A stretch of 64,000 nt of DNA, from contig CAWFQB010000001.1 in assembly GCA_963817895.1 (NCBI GenBank), positions 608,001 to 672,000 on the forward strand, read 5' to 3'. The notes under the pieces are model-generated. The model did no database searches and was not told the DNA's origin. It saw only the letters and a list, made by a program, of their open reading frames with translations. Source of the DNA: an uncultured Chthonomonadaceae bacterium (lineage in GTDB: Bacteria; Armatimonadota; Chthonomonadetes; Chthonomonadales; Chthonomonadaceae). The position numbers and the translations under genes are program-made. This document shows positions 20,009 to 27,017 of the stretch, piece after piece; positions within the stretch are counted from its first letter, which is position 1; each line of letters opens with the position of its first letter.

Positions 20009-21130
20009 TCAGCGCACCTCAATTTGATCGCGCGTCACAATCGCAAGTTCGCGCTCACCAAAAATAGTAGGTACGATCTCCCCGCCCCTTTCCCGCAGAC
20101 GAATCAACAAGCCCTCCTCATTCTGATCTTCATCCGCCGCCCGCTGAAACGCTTCGATACAGTCCCAACTATGCGTCGTCGCAAACACCTGCACATTCAG
20201 CCGTTGCGCCACCTGAAAAATCAACTTCCATACTTCAGGCATAACGGAATAGTGCAGTCCGGTTTCAACCTCATCTACAAGAAGAATGCCATCACGCGCT
20301 GCTGTCAATGCGAGTGCAATGTTGGCTATTCGGCTTATTCCTTCACCCAAACTGCGTAAAGGCACAGGCTGATTCATGCCTTTAAGACGAACGATAGGAA
20401 TACGTCCATGTTCGGCATCGCTATCAACTCTGTAGTTGAAATCCGACACTGAGTTTTCTAAAATATGTAACGCTTCTAGTACAGTATTCTGCTCAGGAGT
20501 TAAAGTAATGGCATCCCACATCGCAGGATAAGCCAGTTTCGGATTACTGGTTGTTGAAATAAAAACGCATTTTATACTGTCAGGTGACTCCAAATGAATA
20601 TCAAAACTGCTGTCCAGTAACCTATACACAGGGTAACGACGTACAAAGCCACCTTTTGTTTTTGTCAGCAAGTGAGGAACAGGAATATTCTTCCCTTCAA
20701 AGCCTTCGACTGCGGTCTGCCTGACTAACTCTGCTGTAGGAAGTGTACTTTCAGGTATTGGCGAGAGTTGGAGTAACAATCCCTCTTTATCAGAACCTGC
20801 CGTCCCTACTTTGATTATGCTGTTACTATCAGAAAAAGCATCTCGGCCATAAAACAAATTTTGAACGCTAAAAGATTTGTCCTCGCCTCTAAATTGTGTA
20901 TATGAGTTGCCTCGCACGCGTCGAGGCAACTCATCCCGCGCATCAAGTAAATTCAGAATTTGGTATGCGGAAGCACCACGCGCATACAAGTACAACGCTT
21001 CCAGCAGGGATGTTTTGCCGACGTTATTCTTCCCCGTAATCAGGTTGACGCGGCCAAGCCGTTCGATGCGCAGATGCTCGAAGGCGCGGAAGTTCTGGAT
21101 TTCGAGGGATGGTAAAAGTAGATTAGCCAT
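20009..21130 (-). CDS. AAA_15/AAA_21 ABC-type ATPase
   Basis: IQNFRAF, GKNNVGKTSLLEAL, SLGEG signature, LLVDEVETGLH, TTHS. Confidence 0.9.
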   Translation of the reverse strand: MANLLLPSLEIQNFRAFEHLRIERLGRVNLITGKNNVGKTSLLEALYLYARGASAYQILNLLDARDELPRRVRGNSYTQFRGEDKSFSVQNLFYGRDAFSDSNSIIKVGTAGSDKEGLLLQLSPIPESTLPTAELVRQTAVEGFEGKNIPVPHLLTKTKGGFVRRYPVYRLLDSSFDIHLESPDSIKCVFISTTSNPKLAYPAMWDAITLTPEQNTVLEALHILENSVSDFNYRVDSDAEHGRIPIVRLKGMNQPVPLRSLGEGISRIANIALALTAARDGILLVDEVETGLHYSVMPEVWKLIFQVAQRLNVQVFATTHSWDCIEAFQRAADEDQNEEGLLIRLRERGGEIVPTIFGERELAIVTRDQIEVR

Positions 21131-21928: not shown

Positions 21929-22687
21929 TCAATCTTCCGGTTCCACAACCGCGCCGAACTTGCGAACCCGCTTCTGGTAATCGGCGAGAGCGGCAATCAG
22001 ATGATCGCGGTCAAAGTCGGGCCAGCAGGTCGGCGTAATGTGGATTTCGCTATACGCTGTTTCCCACAGCAGAAAATTGGACAGGCGCAGTTCTCCCGCT
22101 GTCCGAATTAGCAAATCGGGGTCGGGAATATCGGGCGCGTACAAATGCGCGGCAATAGCCTCTTCCGTAATCTCATCCGGCGCAATATGTCCCTGACGCA
22201 CCTGCTCCGCAAGCGCGCGAACCGAATCAACCACTTCCGCCCGCCCGCCATAATTGATGGCGAGATTGAACGTCAGGCCGTCGAAATCGCGTGTGCGCTG
22301 CATGGCGTCCTCAAATTCGGCGCGCAGGCCGGCAGGCAGTTCGCGCATCCGTCCCGACACCCGCACCCGAACATGATTCTGAATCAGTTCCTCGATTTCC
22401 GCCTGCATCGCCCGCAGCATCAACTCCATCAAACCGCCGACCTCATCCTGCGAACGCCGCCAGTTTTCTGAGGAAAAGCCGTACACGGTCAGATACCGCA
22501 CACCCAGCGCATCCGCCGCATACACGATATTTTTCAGCGTCCGATAGCCCTGATCGTGTCCCCACAGCCGGTTTTTGCCCCGCGCCTGCGCCCACCTGCC
22601 GTTGCCATCCATAATGATCGCCACATGCGCAGGCAGTCGCCCTGGATCAAGCCCCGCTGCCCTCGCGTTCGCTGCCCTGTCGGTCAT
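21929..22687 (-). CDS. uppS: Undecaprenyl diphosphate synthase
   Basis: HVAIIMDGNGRWA, FSSENWRR, NYGGR, DLLIRTAGELRLSNFLLW. Confidence 0.97.
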   Translation of the reverse strand: MTDRAANARAAGLDPGRLPAHVAIIMDGNGRWAQARGKNRLWGHDQGYRTLKNIVYAADALGVRYLTVYGFSSENWRRSQDEVGGLMELMLRAMQAEIEELIQNHVRVRVSGRMRELPAGLRAEFEDAMQRTRDFDGLTFNLAINYGGRAEVVDSVRALAEQVRQGHIAPDEITEEAIAAHLYAPDIPDPDLLIRTAGELRLSNFLLWETAYSEIHITPTCWPDFDRDHLIAALADYQKRVRKFGAVVEPED

Positions 22688-22701
22688 GCTATCAACTTCC
22701 T

Positions 22702-23265
22702 CTAAACTTCCATCAAATCCGCTTCTTTGGCCTTCGTCAGCACATCCACTTCCGCGATGTACTTGTCGGTCAGTTTCTGCACCTGCTCCGCGCCCCGCTT
22801 CTCGTCATTCTCGGAAAGCGGGTTCTCCTTATCCTTGCGGGCGGTAGACAGTTTCTTGATGGCGTCCTGCCGCACCGTGCGTATGGACGCCTTGCCCGTT
22901 TCCGCCTTCTGGTTCACCTGCTTGATGAAATCTTTGCGGCGTTGTTCCGTCAGCGGCGGGATGTTCAGGCGGATGCCCACGCCGTCATTGTTGGGCGTGA
23001 TGCCCACATCTGATTTGGAAATCGCCTTTTCGATATGCGCCAGCGCGCTGCGGTCGAACGGCGTAATGAGCAGTTGGCGCGGTTCGGGTACGGACACCGC
23101 CGCCACCTGATTGAGCGGCAGGCTGGAACCGTACATCTCCACTTTGATGTGTTCCAGAATGCCCGGATTGGCCCGTCCCGTGCGTATCAGCGAAAACTCA
23201 TGCTGCACCGCCTCGATGGACTTCTTCATCTTACTCTCAGCGTCTTTGATTAGATCAGGTATCAT
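22702..23265 (-). CDS. frr: Ribosome recycling factor
   Basis: IRTGRANP, PNNDG, PPLTEQRR, VQKLTD; start MIPDLIKD after GAGG RBS; frr-uppS synteny. Confidence 0.97.
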   Translation of the reverse strand: MIPDLIKDAESKMKKSIEAVQHEFSLIRTGRANPGILEHIKVEMYGSSLPLNQVAAVSVPEPRQLLITPFDRSALAHIEKAISKSDVGITPNNDGVGIRLNIPPLTEQRRKDFIKQVNQKAETGKASIRTVRQDAIKKLSTARKDKENPLSENDEKRGAEQVQKLTDKYIAEVDVLTKAKEADLMEV

Positions 23266-23280
23266 GTTCAGCCTCTTTTG

Positions 23281-23420
23281 TGTAGGATAGGAGTAGCGTC
23301 GTGAACTACCAACACCACGAGGGGTGTGGCTTCCGATTTCAACGAGAACTGGTGACTTTCGCCACTCTGACGTTCCCTCCATCAGCGTTTAGCCTCTCGG
23401 TGATTCCCACCGCGAGTAGT
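23281..23420 (-). ncRNA. Predicted TnpB omegaRNA (reRNA) scaffold plus ~20-nt guide from flanking DNA
   Basis: Overlaps the tnpB 3' end and right end (AACGCTGATGGAGGGAACGTCAGA...CAGTTCTCGTTGAAATCGGAAGCC...TTCAC); guide gacgctactcctatcctaca; 5' limit approximate. Confidence 0.65.
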
Positions 23421-23674
23421 CTCCTGCCCTCACACAGTATGTTCACGGCGGCATTGATGTCCCTGTCGTGCAGGATTTTGCATCGCTCACACGTCCATTG
23501 TCTGTCGGAGAGTAAGAGAGATTGTTTGTGCTGGCAGCAGTGACAGGTTTTAGACGAGGCAAAGAACCTCCCCACCTTTACCACGCGCTTGTTTTGCCAT
23601 TGCGCCTTATACTCCACCATGCGGAGGAACGTGCCAATAGCAGCATCGGAGAAGGACTTGGCTAACTTGGTCAG
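23339..23674 (-). CDS. tnpB: TnpB C-terminal fragment (zinc finger + RuvC-III)
   Basis: (L)TKLAKSFSDAAIGTFLRMVEYKA...SSKTCHCC...WTCERC...HDRDINAAVNI. Confidence 0.9.
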   Translation of the reverse strand: MTKLAKSFSDAAIGTFLRMVEYKAQWQNKRVVKVGRFFASSKTCHCCQHKQSLLLSDRQWTCERCKILHDRDINAAVNILCEGRRLLAVGITERLNADGGNVRVAKVTSSR

Positions 23675-24432
23675 GCCGTTTTGCAGCCCTTTGGCTTTGG
23701 GTTAAACTTTCTGATTGGTATATTGCGCCGTTGCAAAATGCCTCGGACACTTGGGGCGGTTATATGAAAATATGCGGACAATATAGCAGTGCTTTCGCCA
23801 TTTTGGTATCGCAAACATAGCGCGTCCTTTTGTGCGTATGTCAATTTATTTGATTTTTTGTCCTGTGACTTTGCATCAGGATTCGTCCAGCCATGACATG
23901 AGAACCGCTTGCCTTTCGACACCATACCCATTGTTGTAAATGGCAATCCGTGTTCGCGGCAAAATTCCATCATGTTAGGAATTTCTGTCAGTTTACCGTC
24001 AGGTGAAAGTAAACGATGTGGCTCTCCATTTCTATAAGCAAGTGCATGGTGTTCTCTGCTTTCCTTTGTGGCAAACTGATTTTTGGCACTAAGACTGAGG
24101 CGCAATCGGGATTCATCGCTATACTTTACGCCCTTGTTTGTTTTCGTAATCGGGCGCAAATTAAATAGTCGAACACCCGCTGTTTTGTATCGGTCAAAAT
24201 GCTTCTGCTCGGCAACATCACGCGCATCAGCATCAGGCACTACTTCAAGCACAGAAAATTCAAAACAGTTTTCACCGTGCTTGTTCCAAGCATTTTGCAG
24301 GTGACGGTTATCGTGCGTGTTGTTTCGCAGATAACAACGGTGTTGATTCCAGCGTTCAGCCAGATTTTGTGTCTGACCGACATAAACCTTGCCGTTTGCT
24401 GTGCAGGTTATTGAATAGACACCAGCGTTCAT
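23671..24432 (-). CDS. GIY-YIG homing endonuclease (I-TevI-like) with NUMOD-like and C-terminal HTH DNA-binding modules
   Basis: GVYSITCTANGKVYVGQT, RWNQH, LQNAWNKHG, catalytic E (AEQ) and N (LFNL); GVKYSDESRLRLS NUMOD3-like; more AT-rich than tnpB. Confidence 0.9.
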   Translation of the reverse strand: MNAGVYSITCTANGKVYVGQTQNLAERWNQHRCYLRNNTHDNRHLQNAWNKHGENCFEFSVLEVVPDADARDVAEQKHFDRYKTAGVRLFNLRPITKTNKGVKYSDESRLRLSLSAKNQFATKESREHHALAYRNGEPHRLLSPDGKLTEIPNMMEFCREHGLPFTTMGMVSKGKRFSCHGWTNPDAKSQDKKSNKLTYAQKDALCLRYQNGESTAILSAYFHITAPSVRGILQRRNIPIRKFNPKPKGCKTA

Positions 24433-25262
24433 ATTCTCGTTAAGCCTTTGAGGTTCAAGTCCTCGATGCAAAAGGTGTCGAAACGACTCAGAAGACGTGC
24501 CGACAGTTTGTGAAGCCAGTCGTTGCGCTTGTTGCGGACTCTGGCATGGAAGATAGCAACTTGCTTTTTCGCCTTAGCCCGATTGCGGCTTGCCTTCTGG
24601 CAGCGGGAAAGACGGCGTTGCAGGCGTTTGAGTTTGCGTTCGGCCTTGCGATAGAACCTGGGAGGCTTGACTTTCTCGCCCGTGTCAAGGGGCAAAAAGG
24701 ATTGCAGTCCCACGTCTATCCCTACGGGAGCGTCACAGACCGGGGCAATGTCAGGCAGTTCAATATGGCTGACTAAGGTGACATGCCAGTGTCCATCGGC
24801 TTCCTGTTTGATGGTCGCGCCTTTGACAGTTCCCTCCATAGCGCGGTGCAGACGGGCTTTCACCAGTCCGATTTTCGGAAGGGACACTTTGCCGCGCGTG
24901 AGGGTGACATTCTGCGGAATACGAAACGCATTGGGAGTGTGCTTGCGTGATTTGAACGTTGGGAACCGCGCCCGTTTCTCGAAGCAGGCCACGAACGCCC
25001 TGTCCAAATCCATGAGCGTTTGCTGCAACACCTGACTGTGGCACTCTTTCAGGAACGCGGTTTCAGGCAGGCGTTTCAATTTCACCAGTTCCCCCGCAAG
25101 GGCGACATACCCGATGCTTTTGCCTGTCTCTTTGTAGACGGCTTGCTTTCGCGCCAACGCCCAATTCCAGACGAATCTTCTACACCCCGCAAAGCGCAGG
25201 AACTCGTGTTCCTGTTCGAGGGTGGGTTCCAGTCTGAACTTGTAGGTTTTGGTGACAATCAC
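24429..25262 (-). CDS. tnpB: TnpB N-terminal fragment (HTH, WED/REC, RuvC-I and II)
   Basis: KTYKFRLEPT, GCRRFVWN, VGIDVG, RNDWLHKLS, IEDLNLKGL; probable GTG start at 25262. Confidence 0.92.
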   Translation of the reverse strand: MIVTKTYKFRLEPTLEQEHEFLRFAGCRRFVWNWALARKQAVYKETGKSIGYVALAGELVKLKRLPETAFLKECHSQVLQQTLMDLDRAFVACFEKRARFPTFKSRKHTPNAFRIPQNVTLTRGKVSLPKIGLVKARLHRAMEGTVKGATIKQEADGHWHVTLVSHIELPDIAPVCDAPVGIDVGLQSFLPLDTGEKVKPPRFYRKAERKLKRLQRRLSRCQKASRNRAKAKKQVAIFHARVRNKRNDWLHKLSARLLSRFDTFCIEDLNLKGLTRI

Positions 25263-26009
25263 AGGAGGCCCTTCCGCCTGTTCAGGGTTTTGATTTCTGG
25301 TTTGCGATGTACTTGGCAATCATAGCGGCAGAGACGGTTCCTGCGCTGCCGTAGTAACAACCGTCCGACCGGGCGTCCACCCCAAGGGAAGGACACCACA
25401 AGGGGATGGGGTTTTCTGGCCTTGTCTCTATAAAATATGTCAAAATAGCGCCTGCCAACTGTCTACAAACTCAGCAACGCGCCCGTTTGTTCCCGCAGCA
25501 GCGCGACACGACGATGTAATGTTGTTTCGGCTTCGGCCTGCGTATTTCCTGCCGCAAACGGCAAATTGAAAGTGGCGTCATAAATCCGAAAGCAACTGTT
25601 TAGCCCCGTTCTCGGTTCTTGCTTCTGTAGAAACATCTAACTTTATCATGGCGGCTGTTCGATCAGTTCAGACTTGTAGAAAGGCTGATGCAACTCCATA
25701 TATCCATCGCTAATCTACTCAAAATATTGATCTTAATTTGAAGGATTCAGCAGCAACGCGCCTACGGTATTTAGATGAAAGTAGGATACGGACGCGCAAT
25801 GAAAAGACCCTTTTGCGCTCCTCTCTTGATAAAGGCGGAAATGAGTTATTGCGTGTTCCACGTAATGACTGCCAAAATGATGAAATTTGATATAGTCGAT
25901 GGACTAGCGTAAGTGTCACTGTCAAAAAGAAACTTCTATATTGTCCAATGTGCTTGAACATGTAAGAAGCAGAAAGGCAACACTATGATATACCCTGTGC
26001 GTCAGTAGT

Positions 26010-27017
26010 TTAGCCCTTCGCATAGTAGTCTGACACTGCCCGGAACGACTCTTTGGGTTCCCACGCCATATCGGGGTAGGTCACGCCGCGTTGATTGGCG
26101 TAGCTTTTAACCAGACTGTAACTCGCCATGTCGAAGTCCAGACGGGGGATGTCAAGATGAATCAGGGTAGGCGAGACAAAGGTAAAGACAAACGCGCCTG
26201 CTACGCCCTCCCCGTCGAGAATCGTCAGCAGGTCTGTCAGTTCGCGCGCCTGTAAGCCTTCGTCGCGCGTATAGTCGCCGTTAAGTCGTGGCCGCGCCGG
26301 ATCGGAGTTTTCCATAATGGCCCAGCCCATGCCGCCCCTGTCCTCGGCTCCCTGATAGGCGCAGCAGCCAACTTCCGCGATGATGAGGGGCTTATGATAG
26401 CTTGCGTACTGCCGGAGTCGCGCGCCGTATGTGTCACGGTCACGCGCCATGCGGTAGTGGTCCAGGCAGATGTAGTCGAAGAGCGTCCAGTCCACTGCTT
26501 CAAAAGGAACCGCCGCGTAGGTCACTTCGCCGTGAAAGACCTGCCGAACCGCCGCGTTCGCTTCGCGCAAAAAGGCGTTGAGCGGCGCATTATGCTGCCC
26601 GGAATGGAGATTCGCAAACAGCGTCGGCGCGGCAATCCGTTCCATAAAGCTGCCGCCCGGAAGGAGTCCCTGCATGAAAAGCGTGAACTCGCCGCCGAGA
26701 ACAAACACGATTTGCGGCGACTGACGGCGCAACAGTTCAGCTTGCGCGGCGCAATCCAGAATGTAAGCCAGTGTTTCGTCCGCGCTTTTATCGTAGAGTA
26801 ACGGCGAAAGCCAGACTTCCAGCCCCAACTCCCGCGCAATCTGCGCGGCCTGTATCAGCCGCTCGACCTCCTGCCCGGAGATGCGGACGGCGTTGCAATG
26901 CAGGTCGTTGCGGATGATCTCCAGTTCCCGGCGCGTGACGGTGAGATCAAAGACCGGGCGCGCGGCCCAATCACCGAGGCGTGTGCCCACATCGTAGTTG
27001 ACCCCTTTTCGGTTCAT
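26010..27017 (-). CDS. Glycoside-hydrolase-like TIM-barrel protein (family often labelled 'abortive infection protein')
   Basis: MNRKGVNYDVG, RRELEIIRNDLHCNAVRISG, IAEVGCC, WEPKESF; AGGAGG RBS. Confidence 0.6.
   Translation of the reverse strand: MNRKGVNYDVGTRLGDWAARPVFDLTVTRRELEIIRNDLHCNAVRISGQEVERLIQAAQIARELGLEVWLSPLLYDKSADETLAYILDCAAQAELLRRQSPQIVFVLGGEFTLFMQGLLPGGSFMERIAAPTLFANLHSGQHNAPLNAFLREANAAVRQVFHGEVTYAAVPFEAVDWTLFDYICLDHYRMARDRDTYGARLRQYASYHKPLIIAEVGCCAYQGAEDRGGMGWAIMENSDPARPRLNGDYTRDEGLQARELTDLLTILDGEGVAGAFVFTFVSPTLIHLDIPRLDFDMASYSLVKSYANQRGVTYPDMAWEPKESFRAVSDYYAKG

Follow-up and report, generated by a model that had tools for sequence, protein, structure and literature searches.

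Architecture of the Interrupted tnpB Locus

We analyzed a 64,000-nucleotide (nt) stretch, here called the window, of contig CAWFQB010000001.1 (positions 608,001 to 672,000, forward strand) from assembly GCA_963817895.1 of an uncultured Chthonomonadaceae bacterium of the phylum Armatimonadota. At one locus in it, the tnpB gene of an IS605-family insertion sequence (IS) is divided into two open reading frames (ORFs) by a gene for a GIY-YIG homing endonuclease (homing endonuclease gene, HEG). Coordinates are those of the window, and all parts of tnpB and of the endonuclease gene lie on the minus strand. Protein relatives carry P numbers and loci L numbers, G002 is a genome of the same genus, and X1 to X4 are public sequencing runs. 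The features of the interrupted gene are as follows.

24429..25262, minus strand: tnpB-N, 276 native codons with the helix-turn-helix (HTH), WED/REC, RuvC-I (GIDVG) and RuvC-II (IEDL) regions; from Pfam, PDB and an alignment of 79 relatives
23672..24434 (equally 23671-24433), minus strand: the insert, 763 nt, one nucleotide plus the endonuclease ORF; from relatives, a contig of X3 and composition
23671..24432, minus strand: the HEG, encoding 253 amino acids (aa); from Pfam, PDB, fold, PHROG and an alignment of 98 relatives
23339..23671, minus strand: tnpB-C, 110 native codons and the stop, with the helix that follows RuvC-II, the zinc-finger/TNB domain and RuvC-III (HDRDINAA); from Pfam, PDB and a start-codon survey

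The 386-codon tnpB (25262-23339) is interrupted after codon 276, between R276 and T277, nine codons beyond the RuvC-II glutamate. Translation of the N-terminal part would begin at a GTG (25262) preceded at 6 nt by a Shine-Dalgarno-like GGAAGGG; its native end, ...CIEDLNLKGLTR, is followed by an isoleucine codon and a TGA that the insert supplies (24431-24429). The native codons of the C-terminal part run from ACC at 23671 (TKLAKSFSDAA...CHCCQHK...HDRDINAA...) to the stop at 23341-23339. The two halves lie in different frames, and the 763-nt interruption leaves no continuous reading frame for TnpB.

Two registers of the insert are equivalent owing to a shared A; in the register 24433-23671 it consists of a T and the complete 762-nt ORF. 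As had been described in a first-pass annotation of the window, the insert is thus almost exactly one 253-aa GIY-YIG ORF (762 of 763 nt), and the coordinates bear out the two overlaps that the annotation had noted: the endonuclease ATG (24432-24430) overlaps the tnpB-N stop as ATGA, and the endonuclease TGA (23673-23671) overlaps a CTG (23674-23672) in the C frame as CTGA. The insert has a GC content of 0.448 and a GC content at third codon positions (GC3) of 0.42, as against 0.53-0.55 and 0.66 in tnpB and a GC content of 0.57-0.60 in the neighboring frr and uppS genes; its composition sets it apart from both tnpB and the host.

Nothing in the insert or at its ends points to an intron, an intein or a transposon. 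No Rfam family, group I and group II introns included, matched positions 22000-27000 at E ≤ 1 with permissive filters, and since the insert also has only one non-coding nucleotide, a ribozyme core can in practice be ruled out. Intein residues are absent from the junctions, where the N half ends with R276 plus one Ile and the C half starts with T277, and a Pfam search found no Hint domain. None of 11 inverted-repeat pairs in 23600-24500 has arms at both insert ends, and the insert is not bordered by direct repeats. The earlier statement that intron core, Hint domain and terminal repeats are all missing is therefore confirmed by the Rfam, Pfam and repeat searches. An imperfect, codon-preserving repeat at the junctions had also been reported; it is present as a 7/10 match, but its codon-preserving meaning is lost, since 1378 of 2000 shuffles reach the same level and the repeat is best ascribed to chance. 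A simple scan of 23100-25700 found no sigma-70-like promoter, against 1.8 expected. A -1 frameshift that would fuse the endonuclease to tnpB-C was considered and rejected, no slippery site being seen by eye.

Both Halves Correspond to an Intact TnpB

The N half matches the Pfam families OrfB_IS605 (1.3e-22) and HTH_OrfB_IS605 (2.6e-18), and its residues 1-269 align with residues 1-280 of ISDra2 TnpB (PDB 8bf8; E 3.2e-42). The C half matches Cas12f1-like_TNB (1.9e-23) and aligns over residues 2-105 with residues 290-393 of the same structure (E 3.8e-23). On ISDra2 the split maps near residue 288, just past the RuvC-II strand and before the next helix. The domain set of a TnpB (HTH/WED-REC, split RuvC D-E-D, zinc-finger TNB) is complete, but it is spread over two ORFs; all three RuvC acidic residues, claimed as retained by the first reading of the sequence, were found (D of GIDVG, E of IEDL, D of HDRDINAA).

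Three intact 386-aa relatives, P0019, P0020 and P0021 (91%, 88% and 87% identical to the N half), are continuous over the junction (...GLTR TKLAKSF...) with zero residues lost or gained. When the two halves were aligned separately to 79 intact relatives they abutted, with nothing missing or extra, which bears out the expectation that removal of the insert leaves a seamless TnpB of about 386 aa. Among these relatives, 102 columns are at least 95% conserved; the split TnpB departs at 3 of them, and intact members at a median of 2 (range 0-7).

The Endonuclease

The 253-aa product comprises a catalytic domain (residues ~1-92), a helical linker, an I-HmuI-like DNA-binding module (~136-183) and a three-helix HTH (199-235). 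It matches the Pfam GIY-YIG family at 3.1e-13, the I-TevI catalytic domain (1mk0) by sequence at E 1.1e-11, and a PHROG homing endonuclease group at 5e-27. An AlphaFold model built from an alignment of 98 sequences (pLDDT, the predicted local distance difference test, 93) matches the fold of the I-TevI catalytic domain in Foldseek with a template-modeling (TM) score of 0.87 and a root mean square deviation of 2.1; the model has helices at 106-134, a beta/alpha module at 139-172 and a three-helix bundle at 199-235. Across the 98 relatives Y6, Y17, R27, H31 and H40 are conserved at 90% or more, and E75 and N91 show no variation; we take these residues to have the catalytic roles of their I-TevI counterparts. 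The middle module resembles the DNA-binding region of I-HmuI (1u3e, E 6e-3), with PHROG matches as well, and the C-terminal HTH gives a weak CENP-B_N match (0.012) that reaches 7.6e-8 in the relative P0002. The protein is an I-TevI-like modular GIY-YIG homing endonuclease of the classic phage-type build. Judged from its sequence, the ORF is complete: it encodes the catalytic residues that its family conserves and a modular, putative DNA-binding tail.

The superfamily is very large (50,032 cluster representatives at E ≤ 1e-3). Relatives over the whole length are few, namely P0002, P0179 and P0180 (38-43% identity), and P0207 aligns over residues 63-241. One of them, P0180, and the intact TnpB P0103 have contigs of equal length (5039 nt), but the two come from different sources and the agreement is taken as coincidence.

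Occupied and Empty Alleles in Public Sequencing Runs

Further alleles of the locus were found as Logan contigs. All runs are listed as DNA('?'), no run held more than 0.19 of the sampled words, and stretches of a run that lacked coverage were given no weight. Record 11 of X3 (534 nt) covers 23328-23670 and 24434-24592 and omits exactly the 763 nt between them (23670->24434); its tnpB is about 86% identical to that of the window (68 differences in 502). This is an insert-free, or empty, allele. Occupied alleles are represented by X1 record 3 (596 nt), which spans the 3' junction (23580-24174; 92 nt of tnpB-C and 503 nt of HEG, 20 differences in 595), and by X4 record 21, which spans the 5' junction (24236-24487; 199 nt of HEG and 53 nt of tnpB-N, 8 differences in 252). 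X2 record 7 and X4 record 19 cross the 3' junction with only 25 nt on the HEG side, short of the 31-nt minimum of the search tool; the tnpB-C part of the latter is about 14% diverged from the window. The exact skip in X3, the bridged junctions in X1 and X4 and the intact relatives together make a presence/absence polymorphism at one exact tnpB site.

The HEG is far more alike among these samples than the tnpB around it. HEG-only records from X1, X3 and X4 carry mismatches to the window at 3/171, 2/297 and 2/191 positions (7/659, ~98.9% identical), and tnpB-only records from the same runs at 23/187, 68/502, 14/154, 6/52 and 25/170 (136/1065, ~87% identical). This disparity argues for recent lateral spread between alleles. 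X4 has no record at least 99% like the window, yet HEG sequence nearly identical to that of the window is joined there to tnpB flanks; the HEG carrier in that run is therefore a strain other than the window's. X2 holds sequence identical to the window and may be the same strain.

The first-pass annotation had proposed a check of both junctions and a search for the same insertion elsewhere. The 3' junction is crossed by X1 record 3 and the 5' junction by X4 record 21, both from studies other than that of the window; the runs give evidence of the insert at the same site in samples with diverged flanks, and X3 supplies the insert-free allele. The uninterrupted copy that it had suggested looking for in the same genome is not there; the split copy is the only one of its tnpB lineage.

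Several further sequences touch on the same site. In another public assembly, the 3' part of the HEG (P0001) and tnpB-C (P0139), identical to the window, lie on a 1408-nt contig; possibly the assembly graph is broken there, within the insert or close to it, as expected for a polymorphic insert or polymorphic flanks. Three metagenomic gene calls for a TnpB C terminus (P0140, P0141 and P0143, 68-78% identical) start on this junction or no more than two residues from it. P0140 opens with 15 residues of unrelated sequence, its TnpB homology being lost two residues past the junction, and P0141 and P0143 have a Met start at or near it, yet relatives carry Met there anyway; these calls may be further split alleles and are offered as leads only. 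P0022, a 313-aa TnpB relative with five member sequences on four contigs, has lost 73 codons in frame around the endonuclease site (...NDWLHK/QSLLLSD...). The heptamer CACAAAC occurs in the window at 24506-24512 and 23524-23530, exactly the P0022 deletion points, at distances of 72 nt ahead of the junction and 147 nt beyond it, and the allele would be obtainable by microhomology deletion at this heptamer. Endonuclease cutting or loss of the insert could have left this deletion behind as a scar, and such an allele would be immune to the endonuclease. P0022 is nearest to P0019 and not to the window tnpB.

A Proposed Homing Cycle

We propose a promoter-less HEG that moves by homing from one allele of this tnpB lineage to another, owes its expression to translational coupling with tnpB and inactivates TnpB; on the sequence evidence we put the probability of this reading at roughly 0.6. 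The endonuclease would recognize, through its C-terminal modules, the uninterrupted ...CIEDLNLKGLTR/TKLAK... coding DNA of the lineage and would cut near the junction. I-TevI cuts a few tens of base pairs upstream of its insertion site; by analogy the cut here may fall at a like distance upstream, in the conserved (C)IEDL(N) codons. This 5' side of the target (the CIEDLN codons) is conserved at the DNA level even in relatives that are 45-50% identical. Repair from an occupied allele would copy the cassette into the cut allele, and since the insertion splits the recognition site, occupied alleles would be immune.

The HEG would be transcribed together with tnpB. Because it has no promoter or ribosome-binding site of its own, its expression would have to come from the tnpB transcript and from a restart at the ATGA, where ribosomes that end tnpB-N at the TGA would resume on the overlapping ATG. 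The AUG of phage T4 mobE overlaps the nrdA stop in a comparable way (UAAUGA), and termination-reinitiation was proposed there (PMC2988022). TnpB itself is most likely dead in this scheme, the N fragment being without zinc finger and RuvC-III and the C fragment without a canonical start. The cell would tolerate the split because tnpB is dispensable, and for that reason neither an intron nor an intein would be needed. Because the IS ends and the predicted omegaRNA are intact, the cassette could also ride along with the element if TnpA acts in trans.

The earlier suggestion of a hyper-parasite homing into abundant tnpB genes is plausible in its first part, which fits the same-site inserts in diverged flanks and the insert-free alleles. 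The abundance of targets fails in this genome. It contains eight TNB-domain tnpB loci of all kinds and three Y1 transposase loci, but only one copy of this subfamily; the split-tnpB lineage is single-copy in the 7.48-Mb genome (next best matches 33% and 28% identical), as is the HEG. Three of 300 other genomes of the phylum carry close relatives of this tnpB, and 4/4 genomic loci are contiguous.

Several observations weigh against homing. As the tnpB lineage is single-copy here and in those three genomes, homing targets are few. The HEG was found in one of 68 genomes of the order, its own, and HEG matches at E ≤ 1e-5 in 11 of 401 genomes sampled from the phylum, again including its own, the other ten being 33-43% identical over partial length. 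None of the 11 loci with distant GIY-YIG relatives from the phylum and relatives searches has tnpB nearby, and none of 87 distant GIY-YIG loci (7 genomic and 80 viral) has a TnpB hidden Markov model match within 3 kb; a wider association of HEG and tnpB is thus not shown. The Logan contigs are short (151-596 nt) and of low depth, and X1 and X3 come from one study. Bridging contigs give total difference counts only, so the contrast between HEG and flanks rests mainly on separate contigs, perhaps from different loci. Beyond these points, profile and protein scans of genome and metagenome contigs with the HEG protein, its alignment and P0002 returned no relative and one weak HTH match (L006), and the HEG relatives in plasmid and phage collections are all less than 60% identical.

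Alternative Explanations

The homing cycle may be compared first with a single old insertion into what is now a dead IS, with an immobile HEG and vertical inheritance of the copies in other samples. The single HEG copy in its own genome would fit this, as would the lack of a close HEG in the 67 other genomes of the order and the identical sequence in X2, possibly of the same strain. No other split at the same site was seen among the six short TnpB relatives examined out of the best 120, those being truncated elsewhere. An old and immobile insertion sits poorly, however, with a whole HEG ORF that keeps all family-conserved catalytic positions, with a GC3 (0.42 versus 0.66) that shows no amelioration, with HEG-only contigs at ~98.9% and tnpB contigs at ~87% identity in the same runs, and with the HEG junction contigs of X4, a run with nothing at least 99% like the window. 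We regard this explanation as unlikely, though deserving of consideration.

We give distinctly less credence to a TnpB in pieces, in which the C half would be translated from CTG 23674 or by a restart after the HEG stop and the two halves would form an active RNA-guided nuclease. Both halves are open and keep the GIDVG, IEDL and HDRDINAA acidic residues, the 3 deviations in 102 conserved columns do not exceed what intact members show, the break comes after the RuvC-II strand and ahead of the following helix, the predicted omegaRNA region is undamaged, and the split nrdA of Aeromonas phage Aeh1 works as two chains (PMC3045599). Against this, the C frame has no ATG, GTG or TTG between the upstream stop (TAA 23704) and ATG 23620, at native codon 18; a start there would remove 17 conserved residues, within a conserved helix. 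Earlier candidates are only CTG 23686 and CTG 23674, with AAAGGG 0 or 12 nt upstream. Alignment with intact relatives shows no added tails on either half, while the split Aeh1 NrdA requires its insertion-derived tails (PMC3045599), so that neither an independent start nor assembly determinants of the Aeh1 NrdA type were found. The cell does not need tnpB, and the ~99% identical HEG pieces across runs suggest a recent insertion, for which reason the lack of decay in the halves says nothing about selection. The proposal in the first-pass annotation that translational coupling keeps a two-chain TnpB active is accordingly unsupported: the C half lacks a canonical start, Aeh1-like tails are missing, and intactness fits a recent insertion equally well. 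A fuller version, in which a HEG specialized on one tnpB lineage restarts at ATGA and hands on at CTGA to a CTG-initiated C half in an active two-chain TnpB, seems to us similarly doubtful.

Removal of the insert by a cryptic self-splicing intron, or by another event at the level of RNA or ribosome, would restore one TnpB chain. GIY-YIG genes are often intron-borne, and exact removal of the 763 nt would join the halves seamlessly. But no Rfam family matches at E ≤ 1, an ORF that fills 762 of 763 nt has no space to spare for a ribozyme, known cases of ribosomal bypass fall far short of 763 nt, and the joined form in X3 comes from a run listed as DNA('?') with a tnpB about 14% diverged, which marks it as an empty allele and not spliced RNA; we consider such removal very improbable. 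A chimera of the assembly, at which the 1408-nt contig might hint through a graph break nearby, is hardly credible, given that this contig itself carries the HEG C terminus with tnpB-C, that each junction is also crossed by an independent contig of another study (X1 record 3, X4 record 21), and that the frames and overlaps are exact.

Relation to Known Systems

The enzyme resembles I-TevI of the phage T4 td intron in its catalytic domain, by sequence and by fold, and in its monomer-type build of nuclease, linker, DNA-binding region and HTH. As with I-TevI-like enzymes, the HEG lies in host-gene orientation and beside codons for a catalytic motif. It differs from I-TevI in lying outside any intron, in having no expression signals of its own and in the I-HmuI-like middle module, and its host is a bacterial transposon gene instead of a phage metabolic gene.

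Closer in arrangement are mobE in nrdA of Aeromonas phage Aeh1 and mobA in T4 gene 39/60, free-standing endonucleases that split phage genes (PMC3045599; PMC2988022). There, too, a bare endonuclease gene beside a critical motif makes two ORFs of one gene, with its start overlapping the upstream stop. The hosts of mobE and mobA, however, are essential phage genes whose halves demonstrably reassemble, whereas the present host is selfish and dispensable, with no tails and no canonical downstream start; moreover, mobE and mobA encode HNH enzymes and the window a GIY-YIG enzyme. In the mostly metagenomic "fractured genes" (Dassa et al. 2009, PMC2677866) a HEG lies between split-intein halves. These share the placement of an endonuclease gene between two halves of a conserved gene, but the junctions in the window are without intein sequence, and the halves align residue for residue with intact relatives. 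IStrons, in which a group I intron is fused to an IS605/IS607 element with tnpB (bioRxiv 10.1101/2023.11.20.567912), likewise nest selfish elements, joining the TnpB/omegaRNA transposons to the world of introns and homing endonucleases. The nesting is reversed: in IStrons tnpB sits inside the intron and splicing spares the host gene, whereas here the endonuclease gene sits inside tnpB and nothing spares tnpB.

A full-text search of the literature, confined to main texts, found no report of an endonuclease gene that homes into tnpB or into another IS gene, and no such case appears in the parts available of PMC13565253, PMC10691335 and the IStron preprint (10.1101/2023.11.20.567912). The parts are known; what we regard as new is a free-standing, ORF-only GIY-YIG homing element that targets the nuclease gene of another selfish element in a bacterial chromosome.

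TnpB already serves its transposon as an RNA-guided homing nuclease. A gene for a protein-guided homing nuclease that uses tnpB as its homing site would be a parasite of a parasite. It would need neither intron nor intein when its target is dispensable, and it could shrink to a bare ORF living off the transcription and translation of the host gene. IS genes that are repeated and move horizontally may offer homing endonucleases a niche in bacterial chromosomes that has been overlooked, and such inserts would be a natural route to tnpB inactivation. The enzyme would add to the site-specific nucleases a new one whose target is defined and conserved. Should the two halves after all work together, this would be the first natural split RNA-guided nuclease, and the junction nine residues past the RuvC-II Glu would offer a split site for the engineering of compact RNA-guided nucleases.

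The Host Element and Neighboring Genes

The element that carries the split tnpB has the following further features.

23301..25429, minus strand: IS605-family element without tnpA, ~2129 nt with the insert and ~1366 nt without it; from the empty site in G002 and the end of homology in L026 and L027
25430..25433, minus strand: candidate target-adjacent motif (TAM) TTAT, directly 5' of the left end; by position only
25263..25429, minus strand: left end and 5' non-coding part, containing the Shine-Dalgarno-like GGAAGGG
23301..23440, minus strand: predicted omegaRNA scaffold and right end, overlapping the tnpB 3' end; 5' limit approximate
23281..23300, minus strand: predicted omegaRNA guide flank, in the frr leader (frr ATG 23265); inferred from the IS605-family omegaRNA layout

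In G002 the flanks are joined and window ~23298-25447 is absent. Local alignments against that genome end at 25433 in the upstream flank and start near 23300-23305 in the downstream flank, and the left boundary is accurate to about 3-4 nt. The right end, ...GTTCAC at 23301, is the limit of homology to the elements in the related genomes L026 and L027, in which DNA conservation extends beyond the tnpB stop codon. Consensus stems at the right end show two-sided changes, such as GUGGC...GUCAC versus CUGGC...GUCAG, among only three sequences, as an omegaRNA would be expected to, and have no Rfam match. The insert lies ~230 nt or more upstream of this putative omegaRNA region. In the IS605 family the omegaRNA carries the flank beyond the right end as its guide.

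The frr gene, for the ribosome recycling factor, has its ATG 35 nt downstream of the right end of the element and in the same orientation; given this spacing, it may be transcribed by read-through from the element. Some 735 kb away from the window in the same genome, at C1:1365650-1367142 (L117), a tnpB TNB domain has next to it a Y1 transposase match containing one in-frame TAG; the two make up another IS605-type element, unrelated to the first and perhaps degenerate. Elsewhere in the window, a 373-aa ORF (20009-21130, minus strand) has an AAA-ATPase-like N terminus (GKNNVGKTSLLEA) and looks, by its sequence, like an OLD/abortive-infection-type ATPase.

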